A stretch of 64,000 bases of DNA from a virus, in IMG/VR virus record IMGVR_UViG_3300046787_000130, positions 32,001-96,000 of that record. One strand, given 5' to 3'. The number at the start of each line of letters is the position of its first letter. Within the stretch, counting starts at the first letter, position 1. The notes under the pieces were generated by a model. That model worked only from the letters and a program-made list of their open reading frames with translations, did not search any database and was not told where the DNA came from. The position numbers were made by a program, and so were the translations under genes. Of this stretch, positions 55,027 to 61,038 are shown in pieces.

Positions 55027-57234
55027 ATGGAATTAATTCAAAGCAAATCTGTTCTTGCGCGCCTCATGGCTGCTGAGAACATCAACATTCACCACCAGAA
55101 TGTGCCCACGGCATATTTTGACCTCAAGAATCGTTCGCTTGTCCTGCCCATGTGGGGTGAGATGGACGGTTACATGTATGACCTGCTCTGCGGTCATGAG
55201 GTTGGTCACGCGCTGTACACGCCGTTTGATGGCTGGCATCACAATACGCATAGCAATCCTGCTATGAAGCCATTCCTCAATGTGATTGAGGATGCGCGCA
55301 TTGAGAAGCGCATCAAGTCAAAGTTTCCTGGGCTGTCCAAGTCATTTGCTCAGGCTTATGCTGACCTGTATGAGCGTGATTTCTTTGGCATCAAGAAGAT
55401 TGATGACCTCAATACACTGAACCTCATTGACCGCATTAACTTGTATTTCAAGTTGGGCGCGCACGTCATCGTGCCGTTCACCGATGCTGAACGTGTGTTT
55501 GTTCGTGATACCAGCAACGCTGAAACGTGGGATGACGTGGTTGAGATTGCCAACCGCGTGTATGCCTATGTCAAGCAGAATGAATCCGACAAACTGAACA
55601 GCGTTCAGGATTTGATGGACAAGTTGGCTGACATGCTACAAGATGACCTTAATGATGTTGAGTCTGATGGTCAATCTGACGATTCTATGGAGTATGATGA
55701 CGCCGAATCTGATGACAGTGAGGATGATGGCGCGTCTGGCGGCATGTCTGACGAATCTGATGGTGATGGCGACGATGATTCTGACGCTGCTGGTTCTACC
55801 GGTGACGATGAAGATTCTGAAAATAGCGAGACTCCCAGCAGCACTACCGGCATGAATGGCGGCGTCAGCGATGACAAGACGCAGACTGAACCGTCATCCA
55901 TCACGGATGATATTTTCCGTCAGCGTGAATCTGAGTTGGTGTCCAACGGCAAGGGCAACGTGTATATGTTTGACCTGCCAATCCCCAACCTGAAGAACAT
56001 TATTGTTCCTGTTGAAACCACGCTCAAAAAGTTTGAGGCTGAGGCTAATCGTTTCAATCTTGATGAGATGACGCGCCAGTCTGTTTCTGAGTTCAACTCG
56101 CGCAACAGCAAGTACATTGCTATGCTGGTCAAGGAATTTGAGATGCGCAAGAATGCCACAGAATATGCCCGTGCGCAAGTTTCTCGCAGTGGTCAACTTG
56201 ACACCAGCAAACTCCATCAGTTCAAGTTGAAGAATGACCTGTTCAAGCGGGTCACTACTATCGGCAAGGGCAAGTCTCACGGCATGCAACTGGTGTTTGA
56301 CATGTCTGGTTCGATGTATGAAATCTTCAAGGAGACTGTTGAGCAGATTCTTGTGCTTTCGGTGTTCTGTAAGCGCGTCAACATTCCGTTTGAGGTGTAT
56401 GGCTTTACTGACATTCGGCGTCTGAACCCTCATGCTGGTCAGCGTTGGACACGCGGTTATGGTGAATCTGAGGCTGCGCGTAATGCCAAGCCTACCATGT
56501 ATGGTGACCCGCATTTTAGCCTCATCAAGTACCTGTCGTCAGATATGTCGGCTAGCACATACCGTCGTGCGTTTAACATGCTTGCCACCGTTGCCATGAA
56601 GTACAACAAGCACAACAACTATTTTGGTGCTGCTATGAGTTGGGATACTGCTGGCTTTGAACTTGGTGGCACGCCACTGGCTGAGACCATGATAACCATG
56701 CGCACGCTGGCTGAACAGTTTAAGCATCGCACGGGTGTTGACCACGTCAATCTGGTCATCATGACTGACGGTGAAGGGCACGGCAACAGCACCAGTCACT
56801 CTTATAACTACGCACAAGACACTGCTTATGTTGTTGACCCGCAGAACAAGGAACGTCAGAAGATATACGGCAACCAATATGGCATAAATGAAGCCGTTGA
56901 GAAACTTGTACACAAGTCGCTGTCTCAACTAGGCATCAAGGTGATTGGCTACTACATTGCCAAGCATGCTCGCCATCTCGCGTATGCTTGCCGTAGCGTC
57001 AATGCTACTGCTATGAAGGCTGCTATCAAGAAGCAGGGATTCTTTGTTGAAACCAATCGAATTGGTTTTGACAAGTATTTCCTGCTCCCGATTGGTGAGG
57101 CTCAGGCTGAAACTATGGGTGACGTTGACGCCACAAATAAGAATGCGCTGCGCACTGCCTTCAAGCAGATGCAAAAGGGCAAGCAAGCCAACCGTGCACT
57201 CGCAACCAACTTTGCCAAGGAGATTGCACTGTAA
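55027..57234 (+). CDS. HEXXH metallopeptidase-like / VWA domain protein (CobT-like partner of the MoxR ATPase)
   Basis: N-terminal GHEVGHALYT and NVIEDARIE; acidic linker; VWA MIDAS motifs DMSGSM, GGTPL and MTDGE. Confidence 0.85.
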   Translation: MELIQSKSVLARLMAAENINIHHQNVPTAYFDLKNRSLVLPMWGEMDGYMYDLLCGHEVGHALYTPFDGWHHNTHSNPAMKPFLNVIEDARIEKRIKSKFPGLSKSFAQAYADLYERDFFGIKKIDDLNTLNLIDRINLYFKLGAHVIVPFTDAERVFVRDTSNAETWDDVVEIANRVYAYVKQNESDKLNSVQDLMDKLADMLQDDLNDVESDGQSDDSMEYDDAESDDSEDDGASGGMSDESDGDGDDDSDAAGSTGDDEDSENSETPSSTTGMNGGVSDDKTQTEPSSITDDIFRQRESELVSNGKGNVYMFDLPIPNLKNIIVPVETTLKKFEAEANRFNLDEMTRQSVSEFNSRNSKYIAMLVKEFEMRKNATEYARAQVSRSGQLDTSKLHQFKLKNDLFKRVTTIGKGKSHGMQLVFDMSGSMYEIFKETVEQILVLSVFCKRVNIPFEVYGFTDIRRLNPHAGQRWTRGYGESEAARNAKPTMYGDPHFSLIKYLSSDMSASTYRRAFNMLATVAMKYNKHNNYFGAAMSWDTAGFELGGTPLAETMITMRTLAEQFKHRTGVDHVNLVIMTDGEGHGNSTSHSYNYAQDTAYVVDPQNKERQKIYGNQYGINEAVEKLVHKSLSQLGIKVIGYYIAKHARHLAYACRSVNATAMKAAIKKQGFFVETNRIGFDKYFLLPIGEAQAETMGDVDATNKNALRTAFKQMQKGKQANRALATNFAKEIAL

Positions 57235-57245
57235 TGGTGAAAACG

Positions 57246-57304
57246 TAAGTGATTGATTCTACAAAAGAATTTCCCATCGACTTTTTCGCAGATTCCAGTA
57301 TACT
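57246..57304 (+). promoter_or_regulatory. Composite promoter copy 3: IHF consensus plus sigma70-like boxes
   Basis: TAAGTGATTGATT (57246), TCGACT (57277), 16 nt spacer, TATACT (57299). Confidence 0.72.
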
Positions 57305-57341
57305 TTATATATGATGAATAATTCAAGTGAGGTTTGATAGT

Positions 57342-58574
57342 ATGTACGCTCCCAATTTTACTGCTGCTGAGCAGATTGCTCTGCTGGATAAACTTGCCAA
57401 GCACTACAAGAGCAGCGAGTTGACCACCAAGCAGATTCTGGACTATGCTGATGCCAACGGCATCAAGATTCCATACTTCATTTTGAATAGCAAGACTCGC
57501 AAGGTTGGTCGTGGCTTGTTTGACGTATCCACCAGTGGCGCTGCGGCTGCTGGTTCGCGCAAGCCCAAGGCAGACGCTGCGGCATCCCCTGCCGCACCTG
57601 CCCCTGCTGCTGAGGCTCAGGTTGCGATGGTCGCGCAGGTGGTTTCTCTGCCCACCAAGCGTGCTGCCAACGTGACTGAATCCTATGTGCCTGAACTGAA
57701 TCGCACGTATGTGCCGTTTGGTTTCTTCAATGACCTGAAGAACATTATCAAGTCTGGTGTGTTCTATCCGGTGTACATCACTGGCTTGTCCGGCAACGGC
57801 AAGACATTCATGGTGGAGCAGATTTGCGCGCAACTCAAGCGTGAACTCATCCGCGTGAACATCACCAAGCGCAGCGATGAGGATGCCCTGATTGGTTCCT
57901 ATGAACTGATTGACGGCAACACCGTGCGCCGTGAAGGTCCAGTGCTGACTGCGATGCGTCGTGGTGCGGTGCTGCTGCTTGACGAAACGGACTATGGCAC
58001 TGAGGATTTGCTGTGCCTTCAGCCCATCCTTGAGGGCAAGCCATACTTCGACAAGAAGACTGGTGAGGTGATTCACCCTGCCAAGGGTTTCACCGTGCTG
58101 GCTACTGCCAACACCAAGGGCAAGGGTTCAGATGATGGTCGGTTCATCGGTGCTAACACGCTGAATGAAGCATTCCTTGAGCGTTTTGCCATCACCGTTG
58201 AGCAGGAGTACCCGCCTGTTGCGACTGAGCGCAAGATTCTGAGCAAGAATTTTGCTGAACTTAACATCAATGACGACAAGTTCATTGACCATCTCATCAC
58301 CTGGGCTGAGGTCATTCGCAAGACTTTCAATGAGGGTGGTGTTGAGGAAGTCATCAGCACGCGCCGTCTGGTTCACATTGCCAAGGCATACAGCATCTTC
58401 AAGAGCCGCAAGAAGGCTGTTGAACTCTGCCTAAACCGCTTTGACAATGAAACCAAGACGGGTTTTCTTGACCTGTACACCAAGGTTGACCCTGAAGTGA
58501 GCAGCGCAAACACCGCAGCCCCTGAAACGGCGCAGACTGAAGAACACCAGATGGATAGTGACATCCCGTTCTAA
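57342..58574 (+). CDS. cobS: MoxR/CobS-like AAA+ ATPase
   Basis: Walker A GLSGNGKT, Walker B LLLDE, ATANTKGKGSDDGRFIG, LNEAFLERF and ISTRRL. ATG 57342 follows GAGGT; alternative GTG start at 57327. Confidence 0.9.
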   Translation: MYAPNFTAAEQIALLDKLAKHYKSSELTTKQILDYADANGIKIPYFILNSKTRKVGRGLFDVSTSGAAAAGSRKPKADAAASPAAPAPAAEAQVAMVAQVVSLPTKRAANVTESYVPELNRTYVPFGFFNDLKNIIKSGVFYPVYITGLSGNGKTFMVEQICAQLKRELIRVNITKRSDEDALIGSYELIDGNTVRREGPVLTAMRRGAVLLLDETDYGTEDLLCLQPILEGKPYFDKKTGEVIHPAKGFTVLATANTKGKGSDDGRFIGANTLNEAFLERFAITVEQEYPPVATERKILSKNFAELNINDDKFIDHLITWAEVIRKTFNEGGVEEVISTRRLVHIAKAYSIFKSRKKAVELCLNRFDNETKTGFLDLYTKVDPEVSSANTAAPETAQTEEHQMDSDIPF

Positions 58575-58576
58575 GT

Positions 58577-58605
58577 TTGCCTTTTCAAGCATTCAGGCGT
58601 ATAAT
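58577..58605 (+). promoter_or_regulatory. Sigma70-type promoter
   Basis: TTGCCT(TTT)-17 nt-TATAAT. Confidence 0.7.
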
Positions 58606-58608
58606 AAT

Positions 58609-58659
58609 CTTGTTGGATGTAAATGTCACCGCATCCAACAAGGCTTTTTCTTGGTGACA
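58609..58659 (+). other. Predicted H-type RNA pseudoknot in the 5' leader
   Basis: Stem 1: 58609-58620 pairs with 58631-58642. Loop TGTCACC (58624-58630) is complementary to GGTGACA (58653-58659). Confidence 0.65.
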
Positions 58660-58673
58660 AATTGGAGTTGATT

Positions 58674-58955
58674 ATGTCCGCAGTTGAATCGTTTTATACT
58701 TACCTTGCTGAAGGCAATACCGTAACCACTCGCGCTGCCCGCGCAATGTTCAAGGTTGAGCACGTCAGCACTCTAGTGTACCGTTTGCGCAATGCTGGTG
58801 TTCCGGTTTACACCAACCGCTACACGACCAGCCGTGGTGAGCGCACCTTTGCCTATCGCATTGGTCAGCCATCTGAAGCATTTGAGAATGCTCTCAGCAC
58901 TCGTCATAAGGCACGTGCTCGCAAGGCACTCTACCGTCAGGCTGTTGGCGCATAA
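58674..58955 (+). CDS. Winged helix-turn-helix protein
   Basis: YL..GNTVT...A...F.V...STLVYRLRNAG..VYT...YRIG pattern; GGAG ribosome binding site at 58664 supports ATG 58674. Confidence 0.7.
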   Translation: MSAVESFYTYLAEGNTVTTRAARAMFKVEHVSTLVYRLRNAGVPVYTNRYTTSRGERTFAYRIGQPSEAFENALSTRHKARARKALYRQAVGA

Positions 58956-58982
58956 GTATAAGTCACCTTGCTTGTGACTTTG

Positions 58983-59007
58983 GGGGAGCAGAAATGCTCC
59001 CCTTTTT
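58983..59007 (+). terminator. Intrinsic terminator
   Basis: GGGGAGCA-gaaa-TGCTCCCC followed by T5. Confidence 0.9.
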
Positions 59008-59063
59008 ATTTTGTATTCCACATATATAATCTATAATAAGGCTATGTGTAATGGAGATGCTGT

Positions 59064-60404
59064 ATGGTAACTGTAATTGTAGCAAAATCAAAATTGGATT
59101 GTGAACAACTGCTTGGACAGTTTGTAGATGAATCGCATTATGATGTCGTTGTAGATATGGATGTTGATTGCTACATGCCCCGTAACTGTAATGCTGCTGA
59201 GATTCTAGATTGTAACCAAGATTGCAATAATTGCGATAAAGGGCAAGATGAGAGCCGTATTGCTTTCAAGTTCAGAAAGAATTGGTTCACTAAGGAAGAA
59301 CAAGAGCAAGCCTATGAAGGGTTGCGAGATGCCGCTACACCATCAAACAATCGCGGTATTGCTGCTGGACCAAGAGGCAGTTATTCAGGCTCACGTTGGT
59401 ATGTTACTGACTATCAGCAGAAGATTCTAGACTACATTGAACAGGAACCTGAAACATCTTTCACGCCATTCAAAGATATTCTAAAAGAGATTGATGCTAA
59501 AGAATCAAAGGAGCATAGCACTCATGGCGCTGTTTGGCTCACTGCTCAGATTGAAGAAGACAAGTTTGATTTTGATAAGTGGGTCAAGCAAACTATTAAA
59601 ATGACTGTTGCTGAACGCAAAGCAGCGGCTGCTGATGTAGTCAAGAATTATATCTCAGGCACTCACTATGCTAACAAAGTCAATTCAGGTATTGCCGGAT
59701 GGTATGACCGTTATCCCCGCGCACCTTTTGGTCGCGCAACAGCATACACGCAGCATCACTATAGTAAGTTTGAAAAGTCATTTCCATTCCTACAGTCTCT
59801 GAATAGAGGTTTCAAAGAGTTGATGCCACAGCGTTGGAGCAACCAACGTAAAGCCGCTGATACACTTGACCAACGGTTCCTAGTTCCTGACACCGTGTTT
59901 ACAACCATTACAGTAAACAAGACTTTCAGAACGGCTTGCCATCGTGACGCAGGCGACTTCAATGATGGGTTGAGCAACTTGCTTGTACTGTCTAACAACG
60001 GCAAGTACAGAGGCGGCTATCTAGTGTTTCCTGAATACCGAATCGCAGTAGATGTTCGTCCCGGTGACTTATTGCTAGTTAACAATCATGAAATTATTCA
60101 CGGCAATACTCCCATTGAAACATATGATGATGGTGAGCGTATTAGCCTAGTTTGCTATTTGCGTGAAGGGATGCTTGAGTTGGGTTCTAAGGAATATGAA
60201 GATGCGCGGTTCAACTTCGTAGAAGAGCGCAAGCGTAACAAGGAACATCCTGACTGGCGCAAAGGCTGGAATGGCATCAGTCCAGGAATGTGGACACATC
60301 ATGAATGGTATGACTATCTGCGAGAGTTAGATGAGACAATGCTAGCAAAGTATCATCCTGAAGTAATAGCAACTACATCAGCATTAGATTCACTCTGGGA
60401 TTGA
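59064..60404 (+). CDS. TET/JBP-family 2OG-Fe(II) dioxygenase
   Basis: FTTITVNKTFRTACHRDAGD (HxD), distal HGNT and R.SLVCYLRE; upstream SGIAGWYDR. Confidence 0.85.
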   Translation: MVTVIVAKSKLDCEQLLGQFVDESHYDVVVDMDVDCYMPRNCNAAEILDCNQDCNNCDKGQDESRIAFKFRKNWFTKEEQEQAYEGLRDAATPSNNRGIAAGPRGSYSGSRWYVTDYQQKILDYIEQEPETSFTPFKDILKEIDAKESKEHSTHGAVWLTAQIEEDKFDFDKWVKQTIKMTVAERKAAAADVVKNYISGTHYANKVNSGIAGWYDRYPRAPFGRATAYTQHHYSKFEKSFPFLQSLNRGFKELMPQRWSNQRKAADTLDQRFLVPDTVFTTITVNKTFRTACHRDAGDFNDGLSNLLVLSNNGKYRGGYLVFPEYRIAVDVRPGDLLLVNNHEIIHGNTPIETYDDGERISLVCYLREGMLELGSKEYEDARFNFVEERKRNKEHPDWRKGWNGISPGMWTHHEWYDYLRELDETMLAKYHPEVIATTSALDSLWD

Positions 60405-60405
60405 T

Positions 60406-61038
60406 ATGTGCGCAGTAATTGGAGTTGACCTCAAGAATCCTTCAATGGATGACTTGCATCTTGTTATGAATGTCTTCCTTGAATCTAAGATTCGTGGAAT
60501 GCACGCAACAGGCTTAACCTTTCTATGTGATAACAAACTAATAACATTGATTGCGCCATTGCCGGCAGATAAGTTTTCTCCGATTGAAAACCTATTAGAT
60601 ATGGTAGACAACAACGCGCTTAAACTAATTGGTCATTGTCGGTATAGCACTAGTGACCTTGAATATAATCAACCGCTATACAATAATGATGTTGCCATCG
60701 TTCATAATGGCGTTATCTCTCAGGAACTACCTGAGAACTGGGAGAAGTTGTATGGGATTACTACAAAGACTAAAAACGATAGTGAACTGTTATTGCACAC
60801 AGTCGCTGATAGTCCTCTTATGCTATGGTCTAACGCTAGCATTGCTGCTATTGAGTTGCATCGCAGCGGTGTAATGAAGGCTTATCGAAATGGTAAGCGA
60901 CCGCTGTATGTAACTGAACTAGATAATGGTGTTATCTATACGTCAACTGCTGATATCATGTACAGAGCATCTAAAGGCAGGTATGTTGCCAAGCGGCTTG
61001 ATTTTGAAGGAAAGGATTTACAGTGGACTATCGCTTAA
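60406..61038 (+). CDS. Class II (Ntn) glutamine amidotransferase, stand-alone
   Basis: Cys2 nucleophile (MCAVIG), RG.HATG, GHCRYST, HNG, NDSE and RPLY. Confidence 0.85.
   Translation: MCAVIGVDLKNPSMDDLHLVMNVFLESKIRGMHATGLTFLCDNKLITLIAPLPADKFSPIENLLDMVDNNALKLIGHCRYSTSDLEYNQPLYNNDVAIVHNGVISQELPENWEKLYGITTKTKNDSELLLHTVADSPLMLWSNASIAAIELHRSGVMKAYRNGKRPLYVTELDNGVIYTSTADIMYRASKGRYVAKRLDFEGKDLQWTIA

Follow-up and report, generated by a model that had tools for sequence, protein, structure and literature searches.

A covarying H-type pseudoknot in the mRNA leader of a small winged-helix gene of uncultured T4-like phages

The leader of a small winged-helix (HTH) gene in a T4-like phage very probably carries a real, selected, cis-acting RNA pseudoknot, a conclusion that we draw from the comparison of homologous leader sequences. 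The element was found in a stretch of 64,000 nucleotides (referred to as the window here), which comprises bases 32001 to 96000 of a 161-kb IMG/VR virus record, and all of its parts lie on the plus strand. Stem 1 is formed by the 5′ arm CTTGTTGGATGT (58609-58620) and the 3′ arm GCATCCAACAAG (58631-58642), which pair through 11 Watson-Crick pairs and one U·G pair, bearing out the 12 bp with one G-U of the first-pass annotation of this DNA. The 10-nt hairpin loop between the two arms, AAATGTCACC (58621-58630), consists of the 3-nt loop 1, AAA (58621-58623), and the 5′ arm of stem 2, TGTCACC (58624-58630). The exact complement of this arm, GGTGACA, is the 3′ arm of stem 2 and follows at 58653-58659, base for base where it had been placed, after a loop 3 of 10 nt, GCTTTTTCTT (58643-58652). 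Given that loop 2 has 0 nt, the measured loops of 3, 0, and 10 nt reproduce the H-type geometry proposed earlier (3, 0, and about 10 nt). The Shine-Dalgarno sequence GGAG was also seen at its expected position (58664-58667) and is unpaired in the consensus fold. The 3′ arm of stem 2 ends 15 nt upstream of the A of the start codon of the HTH gene, which occupies positions 58674-58676 and does not begin at 58675.

The energies and the frequency of such structures by chance were assessed for the window sequence by itself. The folding energy of the stem 1 hairpin is approximately -17 kcal/mol according to ViennaRNA, which gives the whole 72 nt a z-score of -2.2, and the stem 2 duplex contributes approximately -9.7 kcal/mol. 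Only two hairpins of at least 12 bp are present on the plus strand of the 64-kb window, one of them being stem 1, and each of 20 shuffled versions of the window contained 0 or 1 of them. For the loop and the 30 nt that follow it, a Watson-Crick match of 7 bp has a probability of 0.005 by shuffling. Two further pairings were considered and dropped: pairing of the 3′ arm of stem 2 with the start codon region is not kept in relatives, and the C-rich loop could pair with the Shine-Dalgarno sequence through only 3 to 4 bp by eye, which show no conservation. The stem 1 loop also holds an ATG (58623-58625) in the frame of the HTH gene, from which a reading frame of 110 amino acids would open; a relative of 110 amino acids on record (P0002) was probably called from this loop ATG. 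Since the loop ATG lacks a Shine-Dalgarno sequence, and since the corresponding frame closes after three codons in L003, the closest divergent relative of the window, we take 58674 to be the real start.

The main evidence for the fold comes from related leaders. Two protein-alignment scans yielded 57 viral and 52 metagenome loci homologous to that of the window, and these collapse to 55 distinct leaders. A simple helix finder detected the same H-type pseudoknot in about 45 of these 55 leaders, in sequences that are quite different from one another. In these relatives, stem 1 has 7 to 16 bp and a loop of 8 to 14 nt, stem 2 has 5 to 8 bp and joins the stem 1 loop to a segment 6 to 12 nt past stem 1, and the end of stem 2 lies 13 to 27 nt from the ATG. 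Some 20 sequence types of stem 2 occur among the leaders, including GCCCC/GGGGT, GCCGC/GCGGT, GTCCC/GGGAC, ATTCCGCA/TGCGGAAT, and GCCCGCAT/ATGCGGGC. The same is seen in L003 (74% protein identity), whose stem 2, TGTTGCC/GGCAACA, differs from that of the window by two double compensations and whose stem 1 contains GGTTAG/CTGACC where the window has GGATG/CATCC. The window's own clade comprises three sequences (window, L002, and L003), and a loose DNA-pattern scan of viral contigs for further members returned about 119 unrelated loci and one distant homologue, none of them belonging to the clade. A stem 2 of 5 bp is weak for any single sequence, with p ≤ 0.05 in 15 of 45 leaders, so that the case for this stem rests on its position and on covariation.

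Covariation was scored in an alignment (A3) that was made with MAFFT from sequence only, with no structure information; both MAFFT and Infernal misalign the divergent clades (window/L002/L003, L046/L086, L073, and L005). In A3, 86.1% of the cells are paired, compared with 35 to 48% when the partners are slid by 1 to 3 columns, and the covariation score is 0.498, compared with 0.06 to 0.125 for slid partners. Double changes were found in 15 of the 16 pairs, and one pair of stem 2 occurs as CG 18 times, as GC 16 times, and as AU and UA twice each. None of 500 shuffles matched the observed number of paired cells, of double-change cells, or of pair types, or the covariation score, and 6 of the 500 reached as high a count of pairs with double changes. 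RNAalifold independently recovers stem 1 and leaves the Shine-Dalgarno sequence and the AUG open. The first-pass annotation had made its pseudoknot depend on the conservation or covariation of stem 2, and both stems were found to covary. The leaders thus combine compensatory changes with a fixed place before one gene family, as is generally expected of a structured cis-regulatory leader.

The kinds of mismatch that are tolerated indicate in which molecule the fold is selected. In the main clade, G·U pairs outnumber A·C combinations by 42 to 3 in stem 1 and by 27 to 1 in stem 2 (69 to 4 in total), an excess not expected of a DNA palindrome or an antisense transcript; the fold is therefore one of the sense-strand RNA. 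This bears on a DNA-level reading, in which inverted repeats past the -10 box would be bound by the dimeric winged-helix protein for autorepression. Although the inverted repeat overlaps the predicted transcription start, a classic operator position, and the gene is predicted to encode a DNA-binding winged helix, relatives have entirely different arm sequences, whereas the recognition helix YRLRN is invariant among the homologues. In addition, the repeats interleave as a pseudoknot, an arrangement that is meaningless in duplex DNA. Given the invariant recognition helix, the interleaved repeats, and a tolerance for G·U that does not extend to A·C, we reject this reading as highly improbable.

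The element is specific to one gene. A covariance model of stem 1 and its flanks (R1) gave one match over the 161-kb genome, namely, the element itself, with the next candidates at E values of 0.6 and 5, and across the related loci it gave one match each, always preceding the HTH gene. Within the window, a second copy of the stem 1 arm, as expected of a repeated cassette, did not recur beyond chance, and other early promoters of these phages, e.g., that of the next gene, are followed by short unstructured leaders. No family of Rfam 15 reached the gathering threshold in 8 homologous loci, and at E ≤ 10 the window and one main-clade leader returned nothing relevant, only noise at E values of 0.7 to 10. 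Being gene specific and without a match in Rfam, the element stands as an undescribed cis-acting RNA, in line with the "undescribed cis-regulatory RNA" suggested at first pass. Judged by these sequence comparisons, the motif is well supported and apparently uncatalogued, while its general kind, the structured mRNA leader, is already known. Its layout is unusual in combining a promoter start at the base of a stem with a pseudoknot and, among relatives, with a promoter inside a hairpin. With about 40 distinct sequences, both stems covarying, and many members having a third helix, it is a candidate for a new RNA family.

In topology and size, the leader resembles the small pseudoknot riboswitches (preQ1-I/II, SAM-II, and guanidine-III), and like a small-molecule riboswitch of H-type architecture it adjoins the ribosome site. 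It differs from these classes in that Rfam shows no match, even at E ≤ 10 with the window or the main-clade leader, and in that the Shine-Dalgarno sequence lies outside stem 2; moreover, the regulated gene encodes a DNA-binding protein, neither an enzyme nor a transporter. Conservation of the A-rich loop 1 (xAA) is about 80% in the main clade, and outside the window and L002, loop 3 consists of 6 to 12 nt of mixed A/U and is poorly conserved in both sequence and length. Across the homologous leaders, the nucleotides at the junction and in the loops show poor conservation and the loops differ in length, which argues against a small-molecule pocket. The analogy to small riboswitches drawn at first pass is therefore weak, and we consider a riboswitch very unlikely.

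The first-pass annotation had also pointed to the U-rich run after stem 1 and suggested a terminator or attenuator. According to this explanation, stem 1 and the U-run would stop transcripts arriving from cobS, transcripts from the leader's own promoter, or both, and read-through would be regulated. The U-run does follow stem 1 in the window and in L002, where a G+C-rich stem of 12 to 13 bp precedes CTTTTTCTT or TTTTTTCTT, and no other terminator is present between cobS and the HTH gene. However, the U-tract is not conserved: the combination of G+C-rich hairpin and U-tract is absent in L003 and in the main clade, whose loops are mixed A/U and 6 to 12 nt long, so that a terminator-like loop 3 is confined to the window's clade and a terminator role could at best be local to it. 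In addition, the 3′ arm of stem 2 is made after the polymerase has passed the U-tract; termination therefore cannot select for stem 2 and leaves it unexplained. The terminator scan also made no call at stem 1, because its loop exceeds 8 nt. We thus hold termination to be quite improbable as the role of the element.

The position of the fold within the transcript can be predicted from the promoter. A consensus scan gave a sigma-70-type early promoter, TTGCCT-17-TATAAT, at 58577-58605 (TATAAT at 58600-58605), which agrees with the promoter called at first pass, and the layout TTTACT or TTGACT, 17 nt, TATAAT is kept in about 40 homologous leaders. From the usual -10 spacing, transcription is predicted to start at 58612, about 7 nt past the -10 box. 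In relatives, the distance from the -10 box to the first pair of stem 1 is mostly 7 nt (range, 6 to 9), so that the 5′ end of the RNA would fall at the base of stem 1 or 1 nt before it. In the window, the maximal stem 1 begins only 3 nt past the -10 box, and a transcript from about 58612 would contain the 5′ arm of stem 1 from there on and retain about 9 of the 12 pairs.

Such a location raises the alternative that the fold is purely a stability element, which would protect the mRNA against decay that depends on its 5′ end, by RNase E with RppH or by RNase J in hosts with this enzyme, with no trans-acting regulator. The usual spacing of 7 nt supports this idea, since the RNA would begin with the fold, as does the precedent of T4 gene 32: its mRNA has a processed 5′ end beside a pseudoknot and is the most stable T4 message. 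On the other hand, a simple hairpin would be enough for protection, yet stem 2 has been kept by many compensatory changes. Moreover, three relatives (L046, L086, and L073) keep the pseudoknot in the absence of the promoter, where it would be internal to a longer transcript unless this is processed, suggesting that the fold is not only a 5′-end cap. We regard a pure stability element as possible but doubtful and rank it second, after the translational operator proposed below.

In the main clade, a third, covarying hairpin (P0) precedes the pseudoknot and wraps the -10 box. Here, a helix of up to 12 to 14 bp, G·U pairs included, forms between the promoter spacer and a segment made up of the 3′ part of the -10 box (TAAT) and the next 7 to 8 nt, and it ends where stem 1 starts. 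P0 was found at L016:2898-2951 and in about 25 other related loci, and it is absent from the window (58577-58612), L002, and L003. P0 is specific to the promoter of the HTH gene, for which the mean helix score was 18.7, whereas 53 other promoters averaged 7.7 and shuffles 5.9; the idea that P0 is a general property of early promoters was rejected on this account, as the other promoters score like shuffled sequence. Scored in one fixed register, 68% of the P0 cells are paired, versus 29 to 51% when slid, and G·U exceeds A·C by 30 to 1, a ratio that the selection of rows favors somewhat. Since the 3′ arm of P0 lies upstream of the predicted start, P0 would form only in read-through transcripts from cobS. 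If this promoter-in-hairpin layer is real, read-through and promoter-initiated transcripts could be handled differently.

For the function of the leader, we tentatively place first a posttranscriptional mechanism, in which the pseudoknot would act as a translational operator. This ranking rests on two observations made above, namely, that stem 2 is kept although a plain hairpin would protect a 5′ end and that the promoter-less relatives keep the fold. With a terminator and a riboswitch disfavored, the leader would act as an operator for a protein competing with the ribosome, as a 5′ stabilizer, or as both. According to the operator proposal, the segment would form a structured leader at the 5′ end of the mRNA that a T4-like phage makes from a small early winged-helix gene. 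With transcription starting at the base of stem 1, the RNA would begin with the H-type pseudoknot, followed in most members by a short U-rich linker and then by a single-stranded Shine-Dalgarno sequence and AUG. The pseudoknot excludes the Shine-Dalgarno sequence and ends 4 to 10 nt upstream of it, at -15 from the AUG in the window and at -17 to about -24 in relatives, where the 30S binding site has its 5′ edge. Given this position at the edge of the site, a protein bound to the pseudoknot could exclude the ribosome; candidate binders would be the HTH protein, whose basic C-terminal helix would make the contact, or a different factor of the phage. As a secondary effect, the 5′ end of the mRNA may be protected. 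We counted in favor of the operator that the genome encodes a homologue of the translational repressor RegA. Counted against it were that the encoded protein looks, by its model, like an ordinary dimeric DNA-binding winged helix, that a pseudoknot at the 5′ end would also be expected of a pure stability element, and that the window's clade consists of only three sequences. A further such point, the poor conservation of loop 3, fits either a protein that recognizes shape or a purely structural role, and it offers no recognition motif.

Protein-bound operators just upstream of a ribosome site include the pseudoknot of the E. coli rpmI-rplT (L20) mRNA and the thrS operator. The T4 gene 43 hairpin is a further example (PMC3014915). 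As in these three cases, in which the bound protein competes with the 30S subunit, the structure described here adjoins the 5′ side of the Shine-Dalgarno sequence. It differs from them in that each of these operators either resembles the RNA to which its protein naturally binds or was shown by binding assays, while for the present leader only candidate binders can be named.

The closest architectural parallel is the leader of T4 gene 32, in which a 5′ pseudoknot is followed by an unstructured A/U-rich stretch and the ribosome site and which combines autogenous repression with high mRNA stability (PMC3014915). This pseudoknot is possibly the only viral case of pseudoknot-based translational autoregulation (PMC3014915). 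Like the gene 32 leaders of T4, T2, and RB69, the present leader belongs to T4-type phages, is gene specific, and consists of an H-type pseudoknot at the 5′ end and an A/U-rich stretch (PMC3014915, PMC535899); as in the gene 32 type, this unstructured A/U-rich region overlaps the ribosome site. There are also clear differences. The downstream gene encodes a 93-amino-acid winged helix of the HTH_39 family and not the single-strand-binding gp32, stem 1, with 9 to 14 bp, is much longer, only 4 to 10 nt without UUAAA repeats link the fold to the Shine-Dalgarno sequence, and the gene 32 leader has no sequence or Rfam relationship to the leader described here. Leader pseudoknots that control phage genes are rare, and the element is a second, unrelated, well-supported pseudoknot leader, found in a large group of uncultured T4-like phages. 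The small DNA-binding gene that it always precedes is followed directly by a cassette for thymine hypermodification. The element also offers a compact object of 50 nt for asking how a pseudoknot adjacent to a ribosome site sets protein output.

The product of the downstream gene (58674-58955, plus strand) is a winged-helix protein of 93 amino acids that matches Pfam HTH_39 and has a conserved basic C-terminal helix. Its AlphaFold model has a pLDDT of 92 and looks like a generic winged helix of the PadR/MarR/TFE type, resembling that of an ordinary dimeric DNA-binding protein, so that no RNA binding can be deduced for it from the model. A sequence search of the PDB was empty. The C-terminal helix (residues 81 to 93; 58914-58952) is rich in arginine (RARK..YR), with R81 and R83 invariant, and from its sequence it could be a dimerization helix or a nucleic-acid-binding helix. 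This basic helix is the only hint that the HTH protein itself might be the repressor. A stricter version of the operator proposal, in which the winged-helix protein would bind its own leader through the arginine-rich C-terminal helix and the pseudoknot would be the operator of an autogenous loop, is in our estimation unlikely. If true, it would be, to our knowledge, the first case of a winged-helix protein with pseudoknot-based translational autoregulation, and a further viral case besides gene 32.

The genetic neighborhood of the HTH gene is well conserved. Upstream are a cobT-like gene and a gene for a cobS-like ATPase, and downstream is a hypermodification cassette that encodes a Tet/JBP dioxygenase and an amidotransferase; the order cobT-cobS-HTH-Tet/JBP, often followed by the amidotransferase (GATase) gene, occurs in more than 40 related loci (55027-61038 in the window; L002 to L110). 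The HTH gene is therefore part of this conserved block, and it may control the DNA-hypermodification genes or serve them in another way. In a tblastn search of 50,697 phage records with the HTH protein, no cultured phage with this gene was found, and similarity to cultured phages at the DNA level is restricted to the cobS gene. The RegA homologue (E = 2.7e-45) is encoded 2.4 kb past the end of the window (G000:C1:98419-98784). A search of the genome for MotA gave no match, but the controls of this search did not respond either.

Several further structures surround the end of the HTH gene. Directly past its stop codon is a hairpin, AAGTCAC/GTGACTT (58960-58980, plus strand), which shares GTCAC/GTGAC with stem 2; a link between the two was rejected, as they change independently in L002 and L003. 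The hairpin is followed by an intrinsic terminator, GGGGGAGC...GCTCCCC and a T-run (58982-59003, plus strand), which closes a one-gene unit and is conserved in relatives. This G5...C5 terminator is followed by an A/T-rich stretch and then by one or two TATAAT boxes for the Tet/JBP gene (59025-59030 and 59032-59037), and CACATA (59019-59024) and TATGTG (59043-59048) flank these -10 boxes. This terminator-promoter layout (58982-59037) is kept in relatives and resembles the PeSL cassettes of T4-type phages, in which a stem-loop with G/C tracts precedes a promoter, acts as a terminator, and occurs in many copies per genome (PMC2839356, PMC4122927). Like the PeSLs, the pseudoknot leader combines a strong sigma-70-like early promoter with a stem-loop, within a spacer between genes of a T4-like genome, and the PeSL-like unit lies downstream of the same HTH gene. 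It differs from them in that its fold is located downstream of the promoter, is a pseudoknot, and occurs once in 161 kb. Another promoter-in-hairpin layout occurs in L073 (1793-1850), where a promoter, TTTACT-17-TATAAT, is located after the HTH gene inside a terminator hairpin, GAGGATGAT...ATCATCCTC, that is followed by a T-run.
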